Shown: piece by piece, positions 1,690-38,901 of the stretch | How the letters are laid out: each line of letters begins with the position of its first letter | How positions within the stretch are numbered: the stretch's first letter is position 1 | IMG/VR virus record: IMGVR_UViG_2711768036_000007 | DNA length: 39,927 nucleotides | Source of the DNA: a virus | Taxonomy: Duplodnaviria; Heunggongvirae; Uroviricota; Caudoviricetes | Direction: 5' to 3' (one strand) | The notes under the pieces: model-generated | The model's input: only the letters and a program-made list of their open reading frames with translations | What the model was told of the DNA's origin: nothing | Database searches by the model: none | Position numbers and translations under genes: made by a program

Positions 1690-1704
1690 TGGTGTCCCCT
1701 GCAG
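1690..1704. repeat. Left attachment-site core (direct repeat, copy of argW 3-prime end)
   Basis: Exact 15-nt match to 38887..38901; its reverse complement CTGCAGGGGACACCA is the 3-prime end of tRNA-Arg argW as I recall it. Confidence 0.7.
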
Positions 1705-16377: not shown

Positions 16378-16701
16378 ATGAAGATGCCAGAAAAACATGA
16401 CCTGTTAGCCGCCATTCTCGCGGCAAAGGAACAAGGCATCGGGGCAATCCTTGCGTTTGCAATGGCGTACCTTCGCGGCAGATATAATGGCGGTGCGTTT
16501 ACAAAAACAGTAATCGACGCAACGATGTGCGCCATTATCGCCTGGTTCATTCGTGACCTTCTCGACTTCGCCGGACTAAGTAGCAATCTCGCTTATATAA
16601 CGAGCGTGTTCATCGGCTACATCGGTACTGACTCGATTGGTTCGCTTATCAAACGCTTCGCTGCTAAAAAAGCCGGAGTAGAAGATGGTGGAAATCAATA
16701 A
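16378..16701 (+). CDS. S: Holin S (class I, dual-start MKM)
   Basis: 107 aa; [41 protein letters not shown] matches lambda S as I recall it. Confidence 0.9.
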
Positions 16702-17161
16702 TCAACGTAAGGCGTTCCTCGATATGCTGGCGTGGTCAGAGGGAACTGATAACGGACGTCAGAAAACCAGAAATCATGGTTATGACGTCATTGTTGGCGG
16801 AGAGCTATTCACTGATTACTCCGATCACCCTCGCAAACTTGTCACGCTAAACCCAAAACTCAAATCAACAGCAGCCGGGCGCTATCAGCTTCTTTCCCGT
16901 TGGTGGGATGCCTACCGCAAGCAGCTTGGCCTGAAAGACTTCTCTCCGAAAAGCCAGGACGCTGTGGCACTGCAGCAGATTAAGGAGCGTGGCGCTTTAC
17001 CGATGATTGATCGCGGTGATATTCGTCAGGCTATCGACCGTTGCAGCAATATCTGGGCTTCACTGCCGGGTGCTGGTTATGGTCAGTTCGAGCATAAGGC
17101 TGACAACCTGATTGCAAAATTCAAAGAAGCAGGCGGAACGGTCAGAGAGATTGAGGTATGA
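16685..17161 (+). CDS. R: Endolysin R (lytic transglycosylase)
   Basis: 158 aa; [35 protein letters not shown] matches lambda R as I recall it. Confidence 0.9.
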
Positions 17162-17595
17162 GCAGAGTAACCGCGATTATCTCCGCTCTGGTTATCTGCA
17201 TCATCGTCTGTCTGTCATGGGCTGTTAATCATTACCGTGATAACGCCATGACCTACAAAGAACAGCGCGACAAAGCCACATCCATCATCGCTGACATGCA
17301 GAAGCGTCAACATGATGTAGCAGAACTCGACGCCAGATACACAAAGGAGCTTGCTGATGCTAACGCGACTATCGAAAGTCTCCGTGCTGATGTTTCTGCT
17401 GGTCGTAAGCGCCTGCAAGTCGCCGCCACCTGTGCAAAGTCAACGACCGGAGCCAGCAGCATGGGCGATGGAGAAAGCCCAAGACTTACAGCAGATGCTG
17501 AACTCAATTATTACCGTCTCCGAAGTGGAATCGACAGGATAACCGCGCAGGTTAACTACCTGCAGGAGTACATCAGGACGCAATGCCTTCGATGA
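17158..17595 (+). CDS. Rz: Spanin inner-membrane subunit Rz
   Basis: 145 aa; N-terminal TM then coiled coil; position after R; resembles lambda Rz. Confidence 0.8.
17351..17542 (+). CDS. Rz1: Spanin outer-membrane lipoprotein Rz1 (embedded in Rz, +1 frame)
   Basis: Lipobox LVVSAC followed by Pro-rich segment; fully inside Rz. Confidence 0.7.
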
Positions 17596-26066: not shown

Positions 26067-26297
26067 ATGACACACATGATCTTTCGTCATGGCGACATGA
26101 AGAAGTGGAAAGGCGTTGGCTACGACTTTGAAATTGTGAAAGCCGAAGAGATTCAGGAATATCTGGATGCTGGTTGGTTTGCACATCCCGATGACCTTCT
26201 GAAGGACGTTGCGGAGCCAGAGCCAGAAGAAAAGCAGCGTAAAAAGCCTGGTCGAAAACCTAAGGCGGCAGCAGATGAACCTGACAACGAAGGGTGA
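26067..26297 (+). CDS. Hypothetical small protein between coat and gp4, 76 aa
   Basis: From internal Met with GGAG RBS; lysine/proline-rich C-terminus; overlaps gp4 start. Confidence 0.45.
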
Positions 26298-26775
26298 TTT
26301 AGTTCTTGCGGCATTACGTAAGCTCGGTGTGGCATCAAATGCCACGTTAACCGATGTCGAACCGCAGTCTATGGAAGATGGCGTCAACGACCTTGAAATG
26401 ATGATGGCTGAATGGCTTGGCGGTGATGCGTCACCAGGTATCAACGTTGGCTACATTTTCGCTGATGTAGATGTCGCTCCAGATCCTGGCGATGAACACG
26501 GTTTATCAAATAACGCTATCAATGCCGTCATTTTCAACCTTGCCTGCCGCATTGCTCCGGATTATGCGCTGGAAGCGCCTGCAAAACTTATAACCACTGC
26601 CAGATACGGGAAAGAGCGACTCGTCAAACTGTCTGCAATGGACAGAGCAAAAGCCGCTAAATGTAAGTCCGGTTATCCAAACCGTATGCCTGTTGGTAGT
26701 GGTAACCAGTTGGCGAAGTGGAACGGTTGGAATTACTTCCACCGGAAGGAACCTTGCGATAACGGGAGCGAATAA
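26275..26775 (+). CDS. Tail accessory / head completion protein (P22 gp4-like)
   Basis: From internal Met: 166 aa, [29 protein letters not shown] resembles P22 gp4. Confidence 0.8.
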
Positions 26776-28194
26776 ATGCCGATTCAGCAACTTCCGCTTA
26801 TGAAAGGTGTCGGCAAAGATTTTCGAAACGCCGACTATATCGACTATCTGCCAGTGAATATGCTGGCTACACCCAAAGAAATCCTGAACAGCAGCGGATA
26901 TCTTCGCTCATTCCCGGGCATTGCCAAACGTTCTGATGTGAACGGTGTATCTCGCGGCGTCGAGTACAACATGGCGCAGGGTGCTGTTTATCGCGTGTGT
27001 GGTGGCAAGCTGTACAAAGGAGAAAGTGAAGTCGGTGATGTTGCCGGAAGTGGTCGCGTATCAATGGCGCATGGTCGAACATCACAGGCGGTAGGCGTTA
27101 ACGGGCAACTGGTCGAATACCGCTATGATGGCACGGTTAAAACCGTCTCAAACTGGCCTGCAGACAGCGGGTTTACGCAGTATGAGTTAGGTTCGGTTCG
27201 TGATATTACGCGCTTACGTGGGCGTTATGCGTGGTCAAAAGACGGTACTGATTCATGGTTCATCACTGACCTTGAAGACGAATCACATCCTGACCGATAC
27301 AGCGCACAATATCGTGCAGAATCGCAGCCTGACGGCATCATCGGAATCGGAACATGGCGAGACTTCATCGTCTGCTTTGGTTCATCGACTATTGAATATT
27401 TCTCCCTGACTGGCGCAACCACCGTTGGTGCTGCTTTGTATGTCGCACAGCCATCATTGATGGTGCAAAAAGGCATCGCCGGGACTTACTGCAAAACGCC
27501 ATTCGCTGATTCTTATGCGTTCATCAGCAATCCGGCAACAGGTGCGCCGTCTGTATATATCATCGGCTCCGGTCAGGTATCACCAATCGCCAGCGCGAGC
27601 ATTGAGAAAATACTACGCTCCTACACTGCTGATGAACTGGCTGATGGCGTGATGGAATCGTTGCGGTTTGATGCTCATGAGTTGCTGATTATTCACCTGC
27701 CGCGCCATGTTCTTGTTTACGACGCATCTTCAAGCGCCAATGGTCCGCAATGGTGTGTGCTGAAAACAGGCTTGTATGACGATGTGTACCGCGCTATCGA
27801 CTTCATTTACGAAGGCAATCAGATAACGTGCGGCGATAAGCTGGAATCTGTTACCGGGAAATTGCAGTTCGATATCAGCAGCCAGTACGACAAGCAACAG
27901 GAACATCTGCTGTTTACTCCACTCTTCAAAGCAGATAACGCCAGAGTTTTCGACCTTGAGGTTGAATCGTCAACTGGCGTTGCGCAGTACGCTGACCGCC
28001 TGTTCCTCTCTGCAACCACTGACGGCATCAATTACGGTCGTGAGCAGATGATTGAGCAGAATGAACCGTTCGTTTACGACAAGCGCGTTTTGTGGAAGCG
28101 AGTAGGGCGCATAAGGAAAAATGTTGGCTTCAAATTGCGCGTTATCACGAAGTCACCTGTAACTCTGTCTGGTGCTCAGATAAGGATTGAGTAA
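26776..28194 (+). CDS. Tail accessory protein (P22 gp10-like)
   Basis: 472 aa, same length and position as P22 gp10. Confidence 0.8.
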
Positions 28195-29042
28195 TGGCGG
28201 ATTCATCACTGAATAATCCTGTCGCGGTTCAGGCTACGCGCCTTGATGCTTCAATTTTGCCACGCAATATATTTAGCCAGTCTTACCTGCTGTATGTCAT
28301 AAATCAAGGTGCTGATGTCGGCGCAATTGCCGGGAAGGCAAATCAGGCTGGTCAGGGCGCTTACGATGCTCAGGTGAAAAACGATGAACAGGATGTGATT
28401 CTCGCTGACCATGAGCAGCGAATTTCTGCTGCGGAAGCAACGCTTGTTAATCATGAGGAGCGAATCAGCCAGGCAGAATCAACTCTTCAGGACCATGAAA
28501 CACGAATAGCTCAGAATGAAAGCGATATTGCGTCGCTTGACACAAGAGTTCAGTCGCTGGAATCGCAGGTTTCAGACCATGAAACGCGCATCGATGCTCT
28601 GGAGTATGCCACTACTCGCAAGAAGTCAGAGGTTGTTTACTCTGGCGTATCTGTAACCATCCCGACAGCGCCGACCAACCTTGTTAGCCTGCTGAAAACG
28701 CTCACGCCGTCATCCGGCACGTTGGCACCATTCTTCGACACCGTTAACAACAAGATGGTTGTGTTCAACGAGAACAAAACCTTGTTCTTCAAGCTGTCGA
28801 TCGTCGGGACGTGGCCCAGCGGAACCGCCAACAGGTCAATGCAGCTAACCTTTTCCGGCTCTGTTCCTGATACGCTGGTCAGCAGTCGTAATGCGGCGAC
28901 AACAACCGACAACATCCTGTTAGCTACATTCTTCAGCGTGGATAAAGACGGATTTCTTGCCACAAATGGCAGTACGTTAACCATTCAGTCGAATGGTGCG
29001 GCGTTTACTGCCACAACCATCAAGATAATCGCGGAGCAGTGA
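28194..29042 (+). CDS. Tail needle (P22 gp26-like) with extended C-terminal domain
   Basis: N-terminus [35 protein letters not shown] resembles gp26; 282 aa, longer than P22 gp26, C-terminal part non-helical. Confidence 0.8.
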
Positions 29043-29499: not shown

Positions 29500-30192
29500 A
29501 TGTTATATGCATTTAAGCTGGGCAGAAAACTGCGCGGCGAGGAACCTTATTGCCCTGAAAAAGGCGGGAAAGGTGGTAGCTCTGATAAAAGCGCAAAGTA
29601 TGCCGCAGAAGCTCAGAAGTATGCAGCAGACCTGCAAAATCAGCAGTGGCAGACGATCATGAAAAACCTTGCTCCGTTCACGCCTCTTGCGGAGCAGTAT
29701 GTTAACCAGCTTCAGAACCTTTCCAGTTTAGAAGGTCAGGGGCAGGCACTTAATCAGTATTACAACTCTCAGCAGTATAAAGACCTTGCAGGTCAGGCTC
29801 GTTACCAGAGTCTTGCTGCTGCGGAGGCTACGGGAGGACTTGGTTCGACAGCCACAAGCAATCAACTGGCTACGATCGCGCCGACTCTCGGTCAGTCTTG
29901 GTTATCAAACCAGATGAGCAATTACAATAATCTGGCAAACGTTGGGCTTGGTGCGCTGCAAGGTCAGGCAAACGCCGGGCAGACGTACGCCAACAACATG
30001 AGCAGCATTGCACAGCAAAGCGCAGCACTTGCCGCTGCTAATGCCAATAAACCATCAAGCCTTCAGACTGCCATTAGCGGCGGCACGTCTGGTGCGATTG
30101 CCGGTGCAGGTCTTGCCAGCCTTTTGGGAACATCAACGCCTTGGGGCGCTGGCATTGGTGCTGGTATCGGATTGCTTGGCTCGTTGTTTTAA
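29500..30192 (+). CDS. Ejection protein (P22 gp7-like)
   Basis: 230 aa, Gln/Ala/Gly-rich with hydrophobic C-terminus; position as gp7. Confidence 0.65.
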   Translation: MLYAFKLGRKLRGEEPYCPEKGGKGGSSDKSAKYAAEAQKYAADLQNQQWQTIMKNLAPFTPLAEQYVNQLQNLSSLEGQGQALNQYYNSQQYKDLAGQARYQSLAAAEATGGLGSTATSNQLATIAPTLGQSWLSNQMSNYNNLANVGLGALQGQANAGQTYANNMSSIAQQSAALAAANANKPSSLQTAISGGTSGAIAGAGLASLLGTSTPWGAGIGAGIGLLGSLF

Positions 30193-30201
30193 GGGGTAAT
30201 C

Positions 30202-31533
30202 ATGGCTACTTGGCAAGGAACAAACGGCGGATTGTTGGCTGGTATCGGCGGCGTCAACTCAAACGCTCCGAGCGCAAATGACATCGGCAATACGCTTCAG
30301 TTTATCAGGCAGAACAATGATATTGAGCGTTCAGGCGCTAACAATGTTGGGCTGACTGCTTTGCAAGGTCTTTCAGGTATTGCAGGGGTGTTTCAGCAGG
30401 AAAAGCAGGCTCAGCGGCAGAAAGAATTTCAGCAGGCGTACGCTAATGCTTATGCGTCTGGTGATCGCGGTGCTTTGCGTCAGTTGGCTACTCAATATCC
30501 AGACCAGATTGAATCCGTTCGTAAAGGCATGGGATTCATTGATGAAGAGCAGCGTAATTCTATCGGCACCTTAGCGGCTGGCGCACGCCTTGCGTCATCG
30601 TCTCCAGAAGCAATGCAATCATGGCTGCAAAACAACGCCGGTGAGTTAGCTCGTGTTGGCGTTAATCCTCATGACGTCGCTCAGATGTACCAACAGAACC
30701 CGCGGCAGTTCGGCGAATTTGTCGATCACCTGGGGATGAACAGTCTCGGGCCCGAAAAATACTTTGACCTACAGGATAAAATGCAGGGTCGCCAGGTTAC
30801 CATGCGCGGTCAGGATCTGGATTCGCAAACCGCCGCTCGGAATCAGGCAATCACAATGCGCGGACAAGATATCCAGGCGAATTTAGGTCAGCAGCGCATT
30901 AATCTGGACGCAGAAACAAACCGCATTAACAACGAAAATAAGCGCCTTGACCGGATGCTATTAGCAGAAACTAACGACCTGAAGCGCCAGGAAATACAGA
31001 GCCGCATAGCAGCCAACAACCAGCAGTTGCAGCAGAAGCAGCAAGCGCTAAATGATGGCTACAAAGACGGCATCAACACCCTCACAACCAGCATGTTCAC
31101 TCTGAACGATATCGTTAGTTCTCCTTCACTTAAGAGCATTACAGGCTTACGTGGAGTAATCCCCAACGTTCCAGGCTCACAGGCTGCAGACACTCAGGCA
31201 CGACTTGATACCTTTAAATCCCAAGCATACCTGACAGCGGTTCAGGCCATGCGAGGCATGGGCGCACTTTCTGATGCCGAGGGCAAAAAGCTCGACCAGG
31301 CTGTTGGTTCGCTGCAGAACTCGCAGAGCGAGGAGTCCTTTCGTCGCAACGCTGGCGTCATCCTGAACACGCTCAACCAGAAGCGTAATGAGGCGGTTGG
31401 TAAGTACGTTCAGCAAAACGGTATCAAGCGAGTGGAAGCGCCTCAGGCTTCTATAGATTACCTGAAGCAGCACCCCGAGCTGTCAATCGACTTCATTAAT
31501 CGCTACGGATATCTTCCATCTTTGGGGCAGTAA
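30202..31533 (+). CDS. Ejection protein (P22 gp20-like)
   Basis: 443 aa, position as gp20. Confidence 0.65.
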   Translation: MATWQGTNGGLLAGIGGVNSNAPSANDIGNTLQFIRQNNDIERSGANNVGLTALQGLSGIAGVFQQEKQAQRQKEFQQAYANAYASGDRGALRQLATQYPDQIESVRKGMGFIDEEQRNSIGTLAAGARLASSSPEAMQSWLQNNAGELARVGVNPHDVAQMYQQNPRQFGEFVDHLGMNSLGPEKYFDLQDKMQGRQVTMRGQDLDSQTAARNQAITMRGQDIQANLGQQRINLDAETNRINNENKRLDRMLLAETNDLKRQEIQSRIAANNQQLQQKQQALNDGYKDGINTLTTSMFTLNDIVSSPSLKSITGLRGVIPNVPGSQAADTQARLDTFKSQAYLTAVQAMRGMGALSDAEGKKLDQAVGSLQNSQSEESFRRNAGVILNTLNQKRNEAVGKYVQQNGIKRVEAPQASIDYLKQHPELSIDFINRYGYLPSLGQ

Positions 31534-34161
31534 ATGGCTAATTACCGTGATTTGTTAGAGCAGGCTGGCGCACGTTACGGTGTGCCAGAAGGGTTGATGA
31601 CTGCACTGGGTGCCAAGGAGTCTTCTTACAACCCTGCCGCAGTAAGCTCCGCCGGGGCTGTAGGATTGACTCAGGTCATGCCTGGGACATGGCGTGATAT
31701 GGGTTATACCGATGAGCAAATGCAAAACCCCGAATATCAGGCTGACGCTGGCGCGCGCTATCTGGCAAAGATGTACCAGCAGTTTGGTAACTGGCGTGAC
31801 GCTCTTCAGGCTTATCACGACGGTCCCGGCAACGTTATGAAGGCAAAGCGTGGTGAATATACGCCAGGACCTGAAGGCCGCGGTTACGTTGATGATCGCT
31901 TTGCTCAATGGGCGGGTGACCCGGTGACAGACTCAACAGTCGAACAGCGCGCCACCTCTGCAAAGGTACATCCTCAGCAAGACCCTAACAACCCGTTTGC
32001 ACAACTGGAAGTACAGTCATCCGAACAAGTATCAGCATCAGGTGTGCAGTCAGACCCAAATAATCCATTTGCTCAGATTGAGCAGCAGGCAGCCAGTCAG
32101 CAGCCACCTCAACCCGTAAGTTCTGTCGCACCGAAACCTGTTCAGCAACAAACAGTTAATCAGGCCAATAATGAACCAGCACGTGAAGAACCATCATTGA
32201 TGCAACAAGCTGGCGATTGGCTCACAGGTGGTCAAAGTGCAGGGCAAATTGCAGAGCAGGCTGGTCGTGGTCTGGTAAACATACCATTCGACGTATTACA
32301 GGGCGGCGCAAGCCTGATTAATGCAATCAGTCAGGGGCTTGGTGGCCCCAAGGTTTTGGATGATGTTTATCGCCCTGTCGATCGACCGACAGACCCTTAC
32401 GCACAAGCCGGTGAAACAATTGGTGGGTATCTCCTGCCAATTGGCACAGCGGCAAAAGCTGCTGGAGCGACAGCAAAGCTCGCAGGAGACATCGGTTCCG
32501 CAGGAAACATGATTGCCGGTTCTCTTGCTGATGCTGCAAATCAGGAGGGTGATTTTGCACAAAATGCTGCCATTAACGGTGGTATCAATATTGGTGCTCA
32601 AGGCGTTATTTCAGGTGTCGGGCGCGTTATTGCGCCAAGGGTTTCACAGGCTCTTGGTGGTGCAGCACTGAATTCTGCTAATGATGTTTCCAGGATGGCA
32701 AAGTCAGGTGCTGGGCGTCAGTCAATTGCCAGTCAGGCCGCTAATGTGTCCGAAGATGTAGCAAAAGCGGCTGAGTCTGCTGGAATTGATATAAACGCAT
32801 TAACACCAGGAATGCGATCTGGAAGTCGTGGAATTGCACAAGCCGAAGGCGCATTGGCATCAACACCAGGGATTGTTCAGGATGCCCATCAGGCAGCATT
32901 TAACGAAATATCATCAAAGTTAAGTCGAAACCTTGATGAATTTGGGGCCGCATCTGGAACGGCATCAGAAAAAAGTGCGGCTATAAAACAAAGGATTCTT
33001 CAAAATCTTGATCAGATGAAGGATGCTGAGCGCGCGGCATGGGATGACGTGCGGTCAACAATGCCAAATCAAAAAGCAAGAATGCTAAATGGTAATGCCG
33101 TTATTCAGGCAGAGCGATCTGCTGGCATACCGCTTACTCCTGAAATGAAACAGTTTGTTCAGGCAAACAATCAAGGTGGAGTAACATTTGATGGCATGAA
33201 AGCATGGAGAGCGAAATTTGCTGATGCGGAGCAAAAATATAAGCGTAGCGGAGAGGTAAATGCGGCAAGGAGAGCAGGGGAAATACGTCGGGCAATTACT
33301 GATGATATGCGCACAATGGCGGAAAACGGCGGATTTTTTGATGACTGGCAAAAAGCTAATGATCTGTCTAAAGCGAGGCTATCCGCACAAGAGAGTGCAG
33401 AGTCTGTTTTTGGGCGTGATTTGGCAACAGATGCACTGATTACGAATGGAGTAAAATCTCTTCAATCATCGTCAGCTAAAGGTCTTAATGGTCCTGCTGG
33501 ATTCCATTCTATGATCCGCGCGCTGCCAGAATCAGAGCGCGTTCCTGCTATATCATCAATGTTGCAGGATGCTATCTCGCATGGTGTACGTGGTGGCAAA
33601 TCTGATGCAGCAGGAATTAACCATATCGCAGGGATACTTACCCCACAAAATGTAAAAGCCATTAGCAGATATTCCTCAGAACTTGGAAGAATTGCTGATG
33701 CATATGGCACTCTTGCAAGAGCAGCAGTGAAACCTCAGCAGTATATTGAAAGAACAGGGAGAACTGCCAATGTACTACGCGATCTGGATGCTGGTTTATC
33801 CAACGTCACATCAACAGTGTTAAATGCAATTGCCAACTCAACATCAGGTGCCATTGTTGGTGGCGCTGGAGGGGGTATTGCAGGCGCTGCCGCGGGTGCT
33901 TTAGTTGGCGCCGGGTTAAAAGGCGCTGTATCTAAAATTGCCACCACACGTAGTGGTCGATATGCGATAGAGAAAGCTGTTCAGGAAGCCACCAAAGCAG
34001 TAAGAGCAGGCGGAAGCAAAGAAGCATTAGCGGCGGCGGAACGCAGATTTATAGCAAATAAAGCCGCCGTAAAAGCAATACGCGATGCTATTGGTAGCGA
34101 TGAATTCAATCGCTTGTCGAGAGCTGGTATTGTCGCCTCGTTAAGCGGTATGAATGAATAG
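31534..34161 (+). CDS. Ejection protein (gp16 position) with N-terminal lytic transglycosylase (SLT) domain
   Basis: 875 aa; N-terminal GAKESSYNP...[10 protein letters not shown]...YHDGPG resembles SLT domain. Confidence 0.65.
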
Positions 34162-34163
34162 CT

Positions 34164-34649
34164 TTATCTAATGTTGCTGCTACTGTTGCATGTGACGGTG
34201 TTTCCAAATCCTGAATTGCAGTTTGTATATGTGTCAACGCGCGTTGGGTAAGGTTGAGTTATAACAGGCTGGCGCGCTTTTTGCTCGATCGCTTGCATTG
34301 TGTTTACAGCCTGATAATTCAACAAAGCCTGCTGGAATGCTTGGCTTTGTGCTATTTGTTGGGCTTGTTCTTGGCTTTGTAATTGAACATAAAGATTCTG
34401 AAGCTCAAGTCTTGCCTGTGCGTCACTTATCTTGCCTTCATCGACACCTTGCCCGAGCATCTTTGCAGCAAGGACATACAGCTTAGGTGTTGGTGCTGAT
34501 GCCATGCGTGAGTCGTTCTTCACACTGGCATCAAGGCAATTAGCCATATCGCTAAGCTTTTGATAGCGTTGTTCGCAACTTGCTTGATAGTCACTTACTT
34601 TTGCGCATCCAACCAGCAGAAGCGGGATAATTAACAGTGATTTTTTCAT
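34164..34649 (-). CDS. Lipoprotein, Gln-rich, at the sieA position downstream of mnt
   Basis: From internal Met with AAGGAG RBS: signal MKKSLLIIPLLLVGC (lipobox LVGC); 161 aa; converges on end of ejection gene. Confidence 0.65.
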   Translation of the reverse strand: MKKSLLIIPLLLVGCAKVSDYQASCEQRYQKLSDMANCLDASVKNDSRMASAPTPKLYVLAAKMLGQGVDEGKISDAQARLELQNLYVQLQSQEQAQQIAQSQAFQQALLNYQAVNTMQAIEQKARQPVITQPYPTRVDTYTNCNSGFGNTVTCNSSSNIR

Positions 34650-34719
34650 ATGGTTAACTCTCCTTAGTTTTTCACAGGATATCATGAAGGCAATGCCATT
34701 TTAGCCGGAAACTAGATTT

Positions 34720-34986
34720 CTATGTTTCCTTTTTATTATTGATATACATGGTCTTAAGCGTTTCAAAAACCATTTTCTTAACCATATCAGATTGTTGTTC
34801 TGCTATACGCTCTGCATCGTCAATGTAAACGGATGCAGAGCTTTGTTTAGCCAATGATTCTTCAATCGCTGCAATTATCTCTGAGTTCAGCGACCTGTTA
34901 TTCATCTTTGCACGCTGTTTAATTTTCGCGTGGAGTTCATGCGGAAGTCTCAAGTGAAACTGCGCCTCGTCGTATTTGCTGTACAT
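34720..34986 (-). CDS. mnt: Mnt-like repressor (ribbon-helix-helix, Arc/MetJ family)
   Basis: From internal Met: FHLRLPHELHAKIKQRAKMNNRSLNSEII...DDAERIAEQQSDMVKKMVFETLK resembles P22 Mnt (NDAERLADEQSELVKKMVFDTLK). Confidence 0.7.
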   Translation of the reverse strand: MYSKYDEAQFHLRLPHELHAKIKQRAKMNNRSLNSEIIAAIEESLAKQSSASVYIDDAERIAEQQSDMVKKMVFETLKTMYINNKKET

Positions 34987-35121
34987 CCGTGATGCCTCAC
35001 CAGTTGGGTGGAATGGCATCGTAAAACCTACTGTACAAATCAACAATCGTACCATTTCGGTATGTAACAAATGCCAACCGTAGCCATGCTGCGGCGATTC
35101 CTTGTATCTGGAGCAAATTAA

Positions 35122-37359
35122 ATGACAGACATTACAGCCAATGTGATCGTATCAATGCCTTCGCAACTCTTCACTATGGCGCGTTCTTTTAAAGCCGTAG
35201 CCAATGGCAAAATTTATATCGGTAAAATTGACACTGACCCGGTAAATCCTGAAAACCAGATTCAGGTTTATGTAGAGAATGAAGACGGTTCTCACGTTCC
35301 TGTTTCTCAACCAATCATCATTAACGCTGCTGGTTACCCTGTATATAACGGACAGATTGCCAAATTCGTTACCGTGCAAGGCCATTCTATGGCTGTTTAT
35401 GATGCGTATGGTGCACAGCAGTTCTATTTTTCGAATGTGCTGAAGTATGACCCTGACCAACTCAGGCAAGATCTTGCATCTCAAGGAGGTGTTAATCTGG
35501 TAAACGGAGCTATCTCACAGGAAGATCTTGTTTTGCAGTCGATCACAAAAATTCCAAGTTATGATAATTCTAACGTAGTCCAGGCGTGGCGCGATAGTGT
35601 TGCGACCTACGGGTATGTTTACTTCTCTAATCATTCAAAAAATCAGATGGTGTACACCGTACCGTCTACAGCTGCTAACGCTTCTTTCCTTGCGAACAGT
35701 AAAGTAATCATTGATAAAAATGTCACCCTGAGATTCGACAGTGATCTGTACTCACTGTTTAAATCGTTGCAGTACGAGGGGGAGGGTACGTTTGAATTTA
35801 CGCACCTGAACTTTAAAGCAACCGGTGGAGAAGTGGATTATCTGGCTAAGCAGGCCATCCTCAACCGAAACCCTATTCGCATGAAGCGAGTGGAATGGTC
35901 AGATTGTAAAGTTTATTCCATAAATGGTGACACGTTCTTCTATGAAGGTGAAGTCACCATATCCTCAGATAGCGCAGCTATCTTCCCCTTAACTACTGAC
36001 CGTACAACAGGCCTGTTCGCACCAATAGATATTGGAGAGCATATTTCTGCACATATTCGTATGGAATCTCAGGCCGCCTCAGAAGTTGGGATTGTTCTGC
36101 GATGCTCTGGTGGTTGGATGATGTTCTATGGGGCACCAGGTGCTACACAGTGGTCTTATAGACAGAAACCAATTGGTGGTCCAGTAGCAGAAGGAACTCC
36201 ATTCCCGCTGCCAGGAGGTTTACTGTCGTACGCCCCGGGCAAAGCAACCGTTGGCGTATCACTGCAAGGTAAAAACTGGGCGCAGATAACGATGAATGGC
36301 GTTGGGATACGCTTGCCCTTTGATACTGCTGATGTAGGGGATGTATACGAAGTTGGGTTTGTTGCACTGACCCCGGCATCTGGAGGTTCTGCGCGTGTAA
36401 CTGGATTATGCAGCTACACCTCTGATAATGGTGTGCACGGTAAGCCTCCACTTAATATCCTTATCCACGGTGATAGTACAGCTGAGGATTTCATTTCCGC
36501 GTTCAGCTCGTACATTCCGCAATTAATGGATGGAGCGAACGGCCACCGTTCACATAGCATTGTAAACAAGGCAGTTGCCGGACAGACAATGAGGCAACAG
36601 TTAGATCTCCTGAAGGCTCAGGGGCCGGGTGATGCTTACATCGTTATTATGGTTGCCGGAACTAACGAAGGGCAGGCAAACCAAAACGGCGATTATATGG
36701 CGGCACTGATAGATGAGTTTGTCTTATATTGCAATGGCCTTGGTCGTATCCCTGTTTGGGTTGAGCCGTGGATGTGGTATAGCCAGTCATTTATTGGCGG
36801 TGCTGGTCAACCATCAGCAAATTACGATGGTGTTGCGGAGTTACGCGAGGCTGGTAAACGCCAGATGATGAAATATGGCAATAACGTCATTTGTGTAACA
36901 ACAACTCACCAGCTCCCGGCCCCATATCCAGAGTATTTCAACACGCAATACGACCCACTTCTGCGTGATGACATTCACCAAAGCCAGTTAGGGTATCGTC
37001 TGTATGCGGAAATTATCTGCTCTGCCATTATCGACTGGTGGTCGCGTGTTGATTACACGCCAAGAGCAGCTGTTCAATGGTGGGCTGGAACAAACGTAAC
37101 AGTACAGGAACCGTCAAGTTTAACTGCCAATTCAATTAATATTAAACTGGCAGCCACTTCATTTGCGAATGGCAATACTGTTCTAACGCTTCCGAGGTGG
37201 TGCAGACCAAAAGTAACCAAAAATGTCCCTGTACCGTTCACTGCTGATGGCGTTTCATTTGGCATGGCAATGGCCACCATTAATGCTTCAACAGGACAAA
37301 TATCGATTGAAGGGTCCACCACTACATCTCCAACGTTCTACATAGATGCGACATGGTAG
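35122..37359 (+). CDS. Tailspike: P22-type N-terminal head-binding domain fused to a domain with SGNH-esterase signature
   Basis: N-terminus [43 protein letters not shown] resembles P22 gp9; downstream blocks IHGDS, VAGQT, GTNE, DDIHQS fit SGNH blocks I, II, III, V. Confidence 0.8.
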
Positions 37360-38886: not shown

Positions 38887-38901
38887 TGGTGTCCCCTGCA
38901 G
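38887..38901. repeat. Right attachment-site core (direct repeat)
   Basis: Exact 15-nt match to 1690..1704. Confidence 0.7.

Follow-up and report, generated by a model that had tools for sequence, protein, structure and literature searches.

An 875-aa protein encoded in the window, i.e. the whole 39,927-nt stretch of phage DNA that was analysed, is supported as the ejection protein in the gp16 position of a temperate phage resembling P22, made longer by a lytic transglycosylase domain at the N-terminus. The transglycosylase on gp16 is real but already known and ordinary, since related phages are already so annotated and T7 has the same layout. In the databases the Sf101 protein is labelled 'transglycosylase' and the E. 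coli proteins 'lytic transglycosylase domain-containing protein'; no paper discussing this protein was found in a literature search.

The ORF is intact and starts with an ATG which abuts the stop codon of gene 20 (TAAATG). It is the third gene of a gp7-gp20-gp16 operon, located between the tail-needle/gp14 genes and the tailspike, and its neighbours encode P22_gp7, Inj_translocase and a head-binding tailspike. The gene order of the prophage is P22-like, running gp4-gp10-gp26-gp14-gp7-gp20-gp16-tailspike-integrase. PHROG 770 ('DNA transfer protein') matches aa 108-835 of the protein (E=3.6e-231), and PF26808 (Phage_P22_gp16) is among the precomputed Pfam domains of protein P0001, which is 98% identical to it. 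Over aa 198-873, the body shows 97% identity to epsilon34 gp13. Together, gene order, PHROG match and body bear out the preliminary description, in which the gene had been assigned to the gp16 position. That description had also given a length of ~600 aa for P22 gp16, which is in fact 609 aa, so that the protein studied here is 266 aa longer. This excess arises because a 207-aa SLT N-module replaces a leader of ~33 aa, and because the epsilon34-type body is longer than that of P22. An ORF on the minus strand downstream was ruled out as a SieA homologue, as it has no similarity to P22 SieA, and ARAGORN found zero tRNA genes at the prophage ends.

An SLT-like set of motifs at the N-terminus had been noticed before, and ESSYNP (aa 29), GLTQVMP (aa 44) and YHDGPG (aa 94) all lie where they had been placed. 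These are not chance resemblances, since positions 2-110 of the Pfam SLT profile (PF01464, 117 positions) align with aa 7-110 at E=2.9e-25, scoring 88.6 bits where the curated threshold is 21.3, and the invariant residues of the SLT alignment are in place. In an alignment with 77 SLT homologues E29, S30, G44, Q47, Y76, Y94 and G97 are invariant, and the catalytic E-S pair is thus retained. The G-L-M-Q motif reads G44-L-T-Q47 in this protein, with both of its outer residues among the invariant ones, and the A-Y-N-x-G motif reads A93-Y94-H95-D96-G97, in which Tyr and Gly are kept and His replaces a nearly invariant Asn. This N95 to His replacement, which is common to the nearest gp16-linked SLT domains, and T115 to Gly are the deviations at two nearly invariant positions of the same alignment. 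The preliminary description had named the lack of a predicted SLT fold as the result that would count against it. The fold is predicted: the domain has an AF2 pLDDT above 90 (aa 1-127/133, two models), and in a Foldseek search of the PDB all of the top 50 matches are lytic transglycosylases, including Slt70 and T7 gp16 (7k5c_B), which places it in the goose-lysozyme-like all-alpha fold. We infer that the predicted domain would cleave between MurNAc and GlcNAc, yielding 1,6-anhydroMurNAc.

Table 1. Features of the gp16-position gene and its surroundings (positions in the window; aa numbering of the 875-aa protein).
Feature	Position	Strand	Evidence
gp4 (tail adaptor) homologue, retained beside SLT-gp16	26209..26775	+	PF11650 P22_Tail-4 E=1.4e-57; phrog_637
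Gene-7 homologue, 230 aa, first gene of the ejection operon	29500..30192	+	PF25688 P22_gp7 E=1.8e-134
Gene-20 homologue, 443 aa, type accompanying the SLT module	30202..31533	+	PF16928 Inj_translocase
Co-inherited cassette, ~1.4 kb: C-terminal part of gp20 plus SLT N-module of gp16	30739..32151	+	
Gene-16-position ejection (DNA transfer) protein, 875 aa	31534..34161	+	ORF; phrog_770; P22 gene order; 99% nt identity to Dewey/Huey 'DNA transfer protein'
SLT / GH23 family-1 lytic transglycosylase domain, aa 1-133	31534..31932	+	Pfam PF01464; AF2; Foldseek
Predicted catalytic Glu29-Ser30 codons	31618..31623	+	Aligned with Slt70 E478-S479 and T7 gp16 E37; invariant in 77 homologues
Q/P/S-rich disordered linker, aa 134-216	31933..32181	+	pLDDT 30-50 in both AF2 models
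DPNNPFAQ(L/I)E motif, copy 1, aa 150-159	31981..32010	+	
DPNNPFAQ(L/I)E motif, copy 2, aa 174-183	32053..32082	+	
Right-hand mosaic junction of the SLT N-module, CCTGTTCAGCAACAA, P-V-Q-Q-Q, aa 202-206	32137..32151	+	DNA alignment
Conserved gp16 core, aa 217-300, common to P22, HK620, epsilon34 and Sf101	32182..32433	+	Alignment
Alpha-helical body, aa 380-740, epsilon34/CUS-3 type	32671..33753	+	AF2 pLDDT 70-92, all helical; 97% identity to epsilon34 gp13
Gly/Ala-rich hydrophobic segment, aa 771-800, candidate membrane-inserting element	33844..33933	+	Kyte-Doolittle maximum 1.63

The SLT domain is followed by a disordered stretch of ~85 residues, then by the conserved core of gp16 and lastly by a helical body of the epsilon34/CUS-3 type (Table 1). 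Gln, Pro and Ser make up 36% of aa 101-200, and the two copies of the DPNNPFAQ(L/I)E motif in the linker are encoded by different synonymous codons. Related [N/P]F-x-Q-F-[D/G] motifs occur on the flanks of the SLT domain in distant homologues. The N-module ends at a mosaic junction in the DNA alignment, to the left of which the 875-aa gene, Sf101 and IME10 are identical, and to the right of which the 875-aa gene tracks epsilon34 and IME10 tracks Sf6. Q205 and Q206, within the junction, are invariant across all seven gp16 types. An internal start producing a gp16 that lacks the SLT domain was considered and rejected, the sole in-frame TTG/ATG near the junction (aa 222/223) having no obvious Shine-Dalgarno sequence by eye.

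Over the core region, aa 221-375 of the protein are 70% identical to aa 53-191 of P22 gp16. AF2 confidence is low for the core, which suggests that it probably folds only within a complex. Alanine and glycine account for 16.7% and 11.1% of the whole protein, and the C-terminal half had been described as Ala/Gly-rich. This holds in part: combined Ala and Gly reach 34% at aa 701-800, but the higher peak (41%) is at aa 301-400, and there is a single hydrophobic Gly/Ala stretch, which a low-confidence AF2 region (aa 755-795) overlaps. It is because of this one segment, and the published membrane association of P22 gp16 (PMC10883804), that membrane insertion is proposed. A Foldseek search with the full-length model matched only other long transglycosylase-tipped phage proteins and gave zero informative fold matches for the helical body.

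The SLT module is always found with a particular type of gp20. The gp20 homologue is 92-100% identical among all SLT-carrying enteric phages, as against 10-50% identity to those of P22, HK620 and epsilon34. Within the gene, nt 1-537 are common to Sf6-type genes and nt 538-1332 are seen only beside the SLT module. Among the 71 E. coli genomes with any match to the cassette formed by this part of gene 20 and the N-module, 66 have it as one contiguous piece, as do all nine full-length phage records. A foreign origin of the cassette was not borne out by base composition, as there is no GC anomaly over 30.2-32.2 kb. Published genetics have shown that gp16 and gp20 must be cognate and that the gp20 C-terminus is essential (PMC10883804). 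The co-inheritance of the SLT module with a specific gp20 C-terminal region suggests a cognate contact, in which the gp16 N-module may dock on the matching gp20 and so place the enzyme on the conduit. The linkage could also be purely physical, given that the two regions are adjacent and that recombination would be expected in the conserved segments on either side of them.

A bolder extension of the docking idea, which we consider possible but doubtful, is that the gp20 C-terminal tail and the gp16 N-module are a co-evolving docking pair through which the transglycosylase is held on the periplasmic conduit, in the way that T7 gp16-N is mounted on gp15, and that SLT-gp16 is the ancestral and widespread form, with P22, Sf6 and HK620 as reduced exceptions. 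If this were true, the natural chimeras would place the determinant of gp20 specificity in the first ~207-300 residues of gp16, and the recurrent [N/P]F-x-Q-F-[D/E] peptides flanking the SLT domain would be docking motifs.

The genes of phages Dewey and Huey are 99% identical to this one over their whole length and have an 875-aa product. On other gp16 bodies the N-module is present in Sf101, IME10 and 70 of 5,426 complete E. coli genomes, whereas the exact 875-aa chimera is found at >=80% query coverage in none of the 5,426. The SLT-bearing protein is the sole gp16 homologue of Dewey, Huey, Sf101 and IME10, all of which are viable isolated phages. Beyond these, at least 15 clusters (at 50% identity) pair an N-terminal SLT domain with a full gp16-like body, including proteins from Serratia, Tatumella and Skarprettervirus-like phages, and the same gene order is seen in all ten divergent contexts checked as well as in Skarpretter. 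Detection of these relatives depended on the search. With the N-module alone, a word-indexed homologue search returned only fragments and small transglycosylases, and the gp16-like relatives were found by an exhaustive search of representatives; the distant SLT-gp16 proteins were missed by phmmer with the body alone and recovered by a profile built from seven gp16 bodies. The SLT domains of the divergent gp16-like proteins are 61-65% identical to that of the 875-aa protein and keep AYHDGPG, compared with at most 54% for SLT domains outside gp16. From these comparisons the SLT-gp16 architecture appears to be old and under selection.

We think it probable that the protein is a gp16-type ejection protein with an SLT head which cuts peptidoglycan locally during DNA delivery, as T7 gp16 does; its N-module may be mounted on the cognate gp20. 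P22 gp16 is packaged in the virion, released ahead of the DNA and membrane-associated (PMC8402733; PMC10883804), and by homology the 875-aa protein would be carried inside the capsid and leave by way of the tail, preceding the DNA. The gp7 and gp20 proteins would open the outer membrane and begin a periplasmic conduit. The SLT head would then refold in the periplasm and cut glycan strands in its vicinity, with E29 as the acid catalyst and 1,6-anhydroMurNAc ends as the outcome, and this local cutting would widen the hole in the sacculus for the conduit. The disordered linker would tether the enzyme to the gp16 core and to the helical, partly hydrophobic body, the C-terminal part of which would engage the inner membrane. 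The transglycosylase is possibly redundant, since the prophage keeps gp4, the protein to which the muralytic activity of the P22 virion has been attributed (table in PMC5380687). P22, Sf6 and HK620 infect without any SLT domain.

The domain might instead be catalytically dead or weak, and bind peptidoglycan rather than cut it, so anchoring the conduit in the sacculus. The two deviations at N95 and T115 and the long flexible, anchor-like tether would fit such a role, but the catalytic E29-S30 and all of the invariant residues are kept, and the Asn to His change is a lineage signature of gp16-linked SLT domains, which are 50-65% identical across deep divergence. Conservation of this signature fits a conserved active site, and we regard an inactive anchor as unlikely. 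We give about the same low weight to the proposal that the SLT domain is a neutral passenger, carried along in a recombination cassette between two conserved segments, the gp20 N-domain and the gp16 core. SLT-bearing and SLT-less states are indeed intermingled across gp16 body types (in a rough NJ tree), just 70 of the ~1,167 E. coli genomes in which a P22-like gene 7 occurs have the module (~6%), and P22, Sf6 and HK620 manage without it. A passenger would not, however, readily account for module DNA that is >99% conserved across 67 genomes, for a repeated DPNNPFAQ motif kept with different codons, or for an architecture that persists in several phage genera at 27-35% overall identity.

Phage lytic transglycosylases also serve as endolysins, and 'endolysin' families are among the PHROG matches, so a role at another stage (lysis or virion release) rather than in entry was considered. 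This is very improbable given that a cassette of the prophage itself (16378-17595) supplies holin, endolysin and Rz, that the domain is covalently joined to a protein whose homologues are packaged and ejected, and that it has no signal peptide of its own. Least credible of all is that the long ORF is an artefact, such as a sequencing or assembly error that joined two genes; nothing but its unusual length relative to P22 would favour this, and it is refuted by the same uninterrupted ORF in phages isolated independently and in 66-70 complete genomes.

The SLT-gp16 protein does not reveal a new kind of mechanism. It does show that too general a picture had been drawn from P22, Sf6, HK620 and CUS-3, as a transglycosylase-tipped gp16 occurs in about 6% of the E. 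coli prophages that have a P22-like gene 7, in the isolated phages named above and in several further phage genera. T7-type and P22-type ejection machinery are thereby brought closer together than they had seemed. Dewey and Huey, which can be grown on E. coli K-12 once its O16 antigen has been restored (PMC11990801), are tractable systems in which to study the passage of P22-like phages through the cell wall and the regions in which gp16 and gp20 need to be matched.

Among known systems the closest are Dewey, Huey, Sf101 ORF13 (911 aa), IME10 (797 aa) and the E. coli prophage proteins, which have an N-module (aa 1-207) that is 100% identical at the protein level and the same types of gp7 and gp20. 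Sf101 and IME10 differ in that the module is joined to other bodies, that of IME10 being the Sf6 gp13 body (97% identity). Epsilon34 gp13 and CUS-3 gp16 are ejection proteins at the same genome position, and epsilon34 has nearly the same body; however, epsilon34 gp13 (708 aa) has no SLT domain, a 33-aa leader ('MMKVTANGKTF...') stands in place of the 207-aa module, and its gp20 is of the divergent type (10-50% identical). An SLT domain with a full-length gp16-like body is shared by Skarpretter gp17, Sortsne, Lumpael, IME_EC2, C130_2, Kosakonia Kc phages and prophages of Serratia marcescens and Tatumella terrea. The proteins of the Skarprettervirus type and of Serratia and Tatumella have the order gp7-gp20-gp16-tailspike and SLT domains 57-67% identical to this one, but they are 850-1033 aa long with 27-35% overall identity, and in most of them the SLT domain is preceded by a leader of ~30 aa (MANxFxQFD, MAGPWExYQ or MDVxLPNG) which the 875-aa protein lacks. 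Among solved structures the C-terminal domain of E. coli Slt70 is the best match, both in sequence (E=6.5e-10) and in fold (33% identity), and it shares the catalytic and substrate-binding motifs. Slt70 is nevertheless a housekeeping enzyme of the periplasm whose N-terminal part forms a large superhelical ring, whereas here the catalytic domain alone is found at the N-terminus of a phage structural protein.

T7 gp16 (1318 aa) likewise has an SLT domain at its extreme N-terminus, and it is the largest product of an ejection operon of three genes, of which its own comes last. The two proteins are 28% identical over 130 aa and share the fold, and E37, named as catalytic in T7 gp16 (PMC8954989), aligns with E29. 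The similarity is confined to the SLT domain (pairwise BLAST), phrog_342 aligns with aa 3-241 only, and T7 gp16 is not among the PDB sequence matches at E<=0.01. T7 gp16 also exceeds the 875-aa protein by 440 aa and, before ejection, is part of a core stack that is reported to be absent from P22-like phages (PMC8954989). From the confinement of the similarity to the SLT domain, the 875-aa protein would work like T7 gp16-N and is not a member of the T7 gp16 family. In T7 the segment after the SLT domain binds the middle ejection protein gp15, and the N-terminal domain is important mainly when peptidoglycan is highly cross-linked (PMC8954989). P22 gp16, for its part, shares the operon position, the PF26808 family and the core, but has another C-terminal body and, as the suggested comparison with Sf6 and HK620 found for those phages too, no SLT domain. 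The preliminary description had proposed a mechanism different from canonical P22. What stands of this is the addition of a T7-like enzyme; the P22 machinery is retained, and because it includes a gp4 homologue (PF11650) we read the system as P22 machinery plus a T7-like enzyme.

The gp16-position gene of this P22-like prophage is an uninterrupted ORF of 875 codons, the ATG of which directly follows the stop of the upstream gene (TAAATG). The preliminary description had placed an N-terminal lytic transglycosylase (SLT) domain on this enlarged ejection protein, and the motifs it named were located at aa 29 (ESSYNP), 44 (GLTQVMP) and 94 (YHDGPG). Pfam SLT (PF01464) matches aa 7-110 (E=2.9e-25; 88.6 bits, cut-off 21.3), and among solved structures the protein sequence best matches the catalytic domain of Slt70 from E. 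coli (E=6.5e-10), with E29-S30 aligned with the catalytic E478-S479. Alignment with 76 SLT homologues shows E29, S30, G44, Q47, Y76, Y94 and G97 to be invariant, and the protein deviates at two nearly invariant positions (N95 to His, T115 to Gly). An AF2 model of aa 1-215 has pLDDT above 90 over aa 1-127 and disorder beyond. In a Foldseek search of the PDB the top 50 matches are all lytic transglycosylases (Slt70, Slt, MltC, MltE, MltF, MltD and T7 gp16, the last at rank 47 in the ejectosome structure 7k5c). Since the AF2 fold is confident and only lytic transglycosylases appear among these matches, an SLT fold is predicted, as had been proposed.

Alignment of seven gp16 proteins together with a full-length AF2 model gives a five-part layout (see table). 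The two DPNNPFAQ(L/I)E repeats of the linker differ in their synonymous codons. At the DNA level the SLT module ends at the P-V-Q-Q-Q codons, to the left of which the window, Sf101 and IME10 are identical, while on the right the window follows the epsilon34 sequence and IME10 that of Sf6. The DPNNPFAQ(L/I)E repeats are the two copies here of a short motif, [N/P]-F-x-Q-F-[D/E/G], both C-terminal of the SLT domain; the distant homologues P0260, P0268, P0269 and P0276, found in searches, have it as their very first residues (MANPFAQFD, MANIFDQFD) and also behind the SLT domain. Set against P0260, the N-terminus of the window protein looks as though a ~30-aa leader had been lost between MAN and YRDLLEQ.

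The genes upstream encode homologues of P22 gp4 (PF11650), gp10, gp26, gp14, gp7 (PF25688) and gp20 (PF16928), with a head-binding tailspike and an integrase downstream, and the genes in the flanks are for a permease of the LacY family and a protein of the formate/nitrite-transporter family. The 15-bp direct repeat TGGTGTCCCCTGCAG lies on both sides of the prophage and is probably the att core; homology to phage records starts at 1690, coincident with the left copy. Its sequence looks like a tRNA 3' end in reverse complement, and integration at argW has been reported for related phages; ARAGORN found no intact tRNA in the window. The C-terminal knob of the tail needle makes it of the knobbed type and therefore not of the P22 type, and knobbed needles are also annotated in Dewey and in E. 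coli strain 1190. A 173-aa minus-strand ORF, likely truly starting at M13 (MKKSLLIIPLLLVGC, a lipoprotein signal with lipobox), occupies the slot held by sieA in P22 but is not similar to the SieA of that phage. Neither Pfam nor NCBIfam gives a match for it, its PHROG match is phrog_6067 (function unknown), and the product may be a surface or exclusion lipoprotein expressed from the prophage.

Features of the window and of the gp16-position protein
Feature	Nucleotides (strand)	Residues	Observation
Direct repeat, left copy	1690-1704		15 bp
Endolysin-position ORF	16685-17161 (+)		Between holin (PF05106) and Rz (PF03245); PHROG 90 'endolysin', E=2e-63; no Pfam or NCBIfam match at E<=0.001
Tail needle, gp26 homologue	28194-29042 (+)	282 aa	C-terminal knob (phrog_1030)
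gp20, C-terminal part	30739-31533
gp16-position protein	31534-34161 (+)	875 aa
SLT module	31534-32151
SLT head		aa 1-133
Linker		aa 134-216	Q/P/S-rich, disordered
DPNNPFAQ(L/I)E repeats	31981-32010, 32053-32082
P-V-Q-Q-Q codons	32137-32151
Conserved gp16 core		aa 217-300	Ala/Gly-rich stretch comes next; model confidence low
Body		aa 380-740	All-helical; pLDDT 70-92
Gly/Ala hydrophobic segment		aa 771-800	Kyte-Doolittle maximum of the protein; helical tail follows
ORF in sieA slot	34164-34685 (-)	173 aa
Arc/Mnt-like ribbon-helix-helix repressor	34720-35070 (-)		Adjoins tailspike gene
Tailspike	35122-37359 (+)		Conserved P22-type head-binding N-terminus; receptor-binding part matches phrog_17606 over its full length and resembles colanic-acid-degrading tailspikes
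Direct repeat, right copy	38887-38901		15 bp

The protein body gives a match to PHROG 770 'DNA transfer protein' (E=3.6e-231), and epsilon34 gp13 is 97% identical to it over aa 198-873. The comparison with Sf6 and HK620 that had been suggested finds an SLT domain in neither ejection protein, nor in those of P22 and epsilon34, and all four are shorter (P22 gp16 609 aa, epsilon34 gp13 708 aa, HK620 gp16 722 aa, Sf6 gp13 665 aa). P0111, an 862-aa gp16 from a Logan assembly, joins the same epsilon34-type body to a different ~200-aa N-terminal extension with no Pfam match, which is another type of N-module unless the start has been miscalled.

The same architecture stands in public databases under transglycosylase names, with near-identical genes in isolated phages. 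Dewey and Huey carry the full-length gene at 99% identity, labelled simply 'DNA transfer protein', and the N-module recurs at 97% or higher DNA identity and 100% protein identity in Sf101 (annotated 'transglycosylase'), APC_JM3.2, Klebsiella phage phiKp_30 and IME10 (gene unannotated). At least three body types bear the module, in proteins of 875 aa (epsilon34/CUS-3 type), 797 aa (Sf6 type, with 97% identity to Sf6 gp13 aa 76-665) and 911 aa (Sf101 type). Of 5,426 complete E. coli genomes, 1,167 have a P22-like gene 7 and 70 have the SLT module; the module genes are named 'lytic transglycosylase domain-containing protein' in all matches listed, and the exact window chimera was found in none of the 5,426 at 80% or higher coverage. 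When 1.84 billion representative proteins were searched exhaustively and the matches classified locally with profiles, 22 clusters of proteins of at least 600 aa had a full gp16-like body. Of these, 15 (797-1033 aa) have an N-terminal SLT domain, a count tilted in favour of SLT by the presence of that domain in the query. These include proteins of Serratia marcescens and Tatumella terrea. The order gp7, gp20, SLT-gp16, head-binding tailspike was seen in all ten genomic contexts examined. A phage database held 21 further records with SLT domains 57-67% identical to that of the window, mostly under the names DNA transfer protein, transglycosylase or lytic transglycosylase (including Skarpretter, Sortsne, Lumpael, IME_EC2, C130_2, Kosakonia and Klebsiella phages and a Stutzerimonas phage); Skarpretter, the sole context examined among them, again shows this gene order.

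The window SLT domain is most closely related to other gp16-linked SLT domains (61-65% identity, with AYHDGPG in common), whereas any SLT domain outside gp16 is at most 54% identical; this makes the fusion an old one rather than a recent acquisition. In a neighbour-joining tree of the bodies, rough and without support values, SLT-bearing and SLT-less proteins are interleaved (IME10/Sf6, window/epsilon34, Sf101/P0281, the last a homologue from the searches), which points to repeated exchange of the N-module among gp16 bodies.

The SLT module is linked to gp20. This 443-aa protein is 92-100% identical along its length in every enteric SLT-module carrier, compared with only 10-50% identity for gp20 of P22, HK620 and epsilon34. 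The first 537 nt of the carriers' gene 20 are common to Sf6-type genes, and the remainder is found only beside the SLT module. The gp20 C-terminal part and the module are contiguous in 66 of 71 matching E. coli genomes (the others being truncated remnants) and in 9/9 full-length phage records. In 16 of 17 P22-like phages the C-terminal tail of gp20 and the N-terminal peptide of gp16 can be sorted into paired classes; locus L018 fits none. Three classes have the SLT domain ('...YLxQNP...YG[FY]LPEGL' with 'MAN(xFxQFD)', 'VDW[HN]S[ML]N' with 'MDVxLPNG', and 'GGYTFxGGDPSxPNSWR' with 'MAGPWExYQ') and two do not ('SKSGI[KQ]FTVE' with 'MKVTANGKTF' in P22 and epsilon34, and 'FSSLWGD' with 'MAKAWKDV' in HK620 and Sf6). 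The match holds even where the rest of gp20 is ~30% identical (e.g. HK620 and Sf6). Since the two regions are adjacent, these classes could result from physical linkage by itself. Published genetics of P22 hybrids, however, shows that a cognate gp16-gp20 pair is required and that gp20 cannot do without its C-terminal 33 residues (PMC10883804). In viable natural phages one gp20 type and one N-module are paired with three different gp16 bodies, and the gp20-matching determinant of gp16 would therefore most simply lie in the N-terminal module or the core.

We rate SLT-gp16 as already known, and its functional principle is textbook T7 biology. In the literature library that was searched we found no paper on SLT-gp16 in P22-like phages, and a 2022 review states that the transglycosylase domain is absent from the P22-like group (PMC8954989). 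The value of the feature, of modest interest in itself, is to correct that generalisation, and the gp20/gp16 cassette offers an experimental lead.

The best-supported reading is that the window protein would act by a mechanism like that of T7 gp16, and we infer that it is enzymatically active, packaged, ejected and docked on gp20. The N-terminal 156 residues of T7 gp16 form a transglycosylase that sits on the gp15 tunnel in the periplasm and is needed with highly cross-linked peptidoglycan, and a gp15-binding segment follows (PMC8954989). The alignment of the window SLT domain with T7 gp16 begins at the extreme N-terminus (28% identity, E29 on E37), but past this domain there is no similarity; the window protein would thus work like T7 gp16-N while standing outside that family. 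In P22 itself the muralytic activity of the virion is credited to gp4 (table in PMC5380687). As gp4 is kept in the same prophage, the SLT domain adds to the P22 apparatus and does not replace it.
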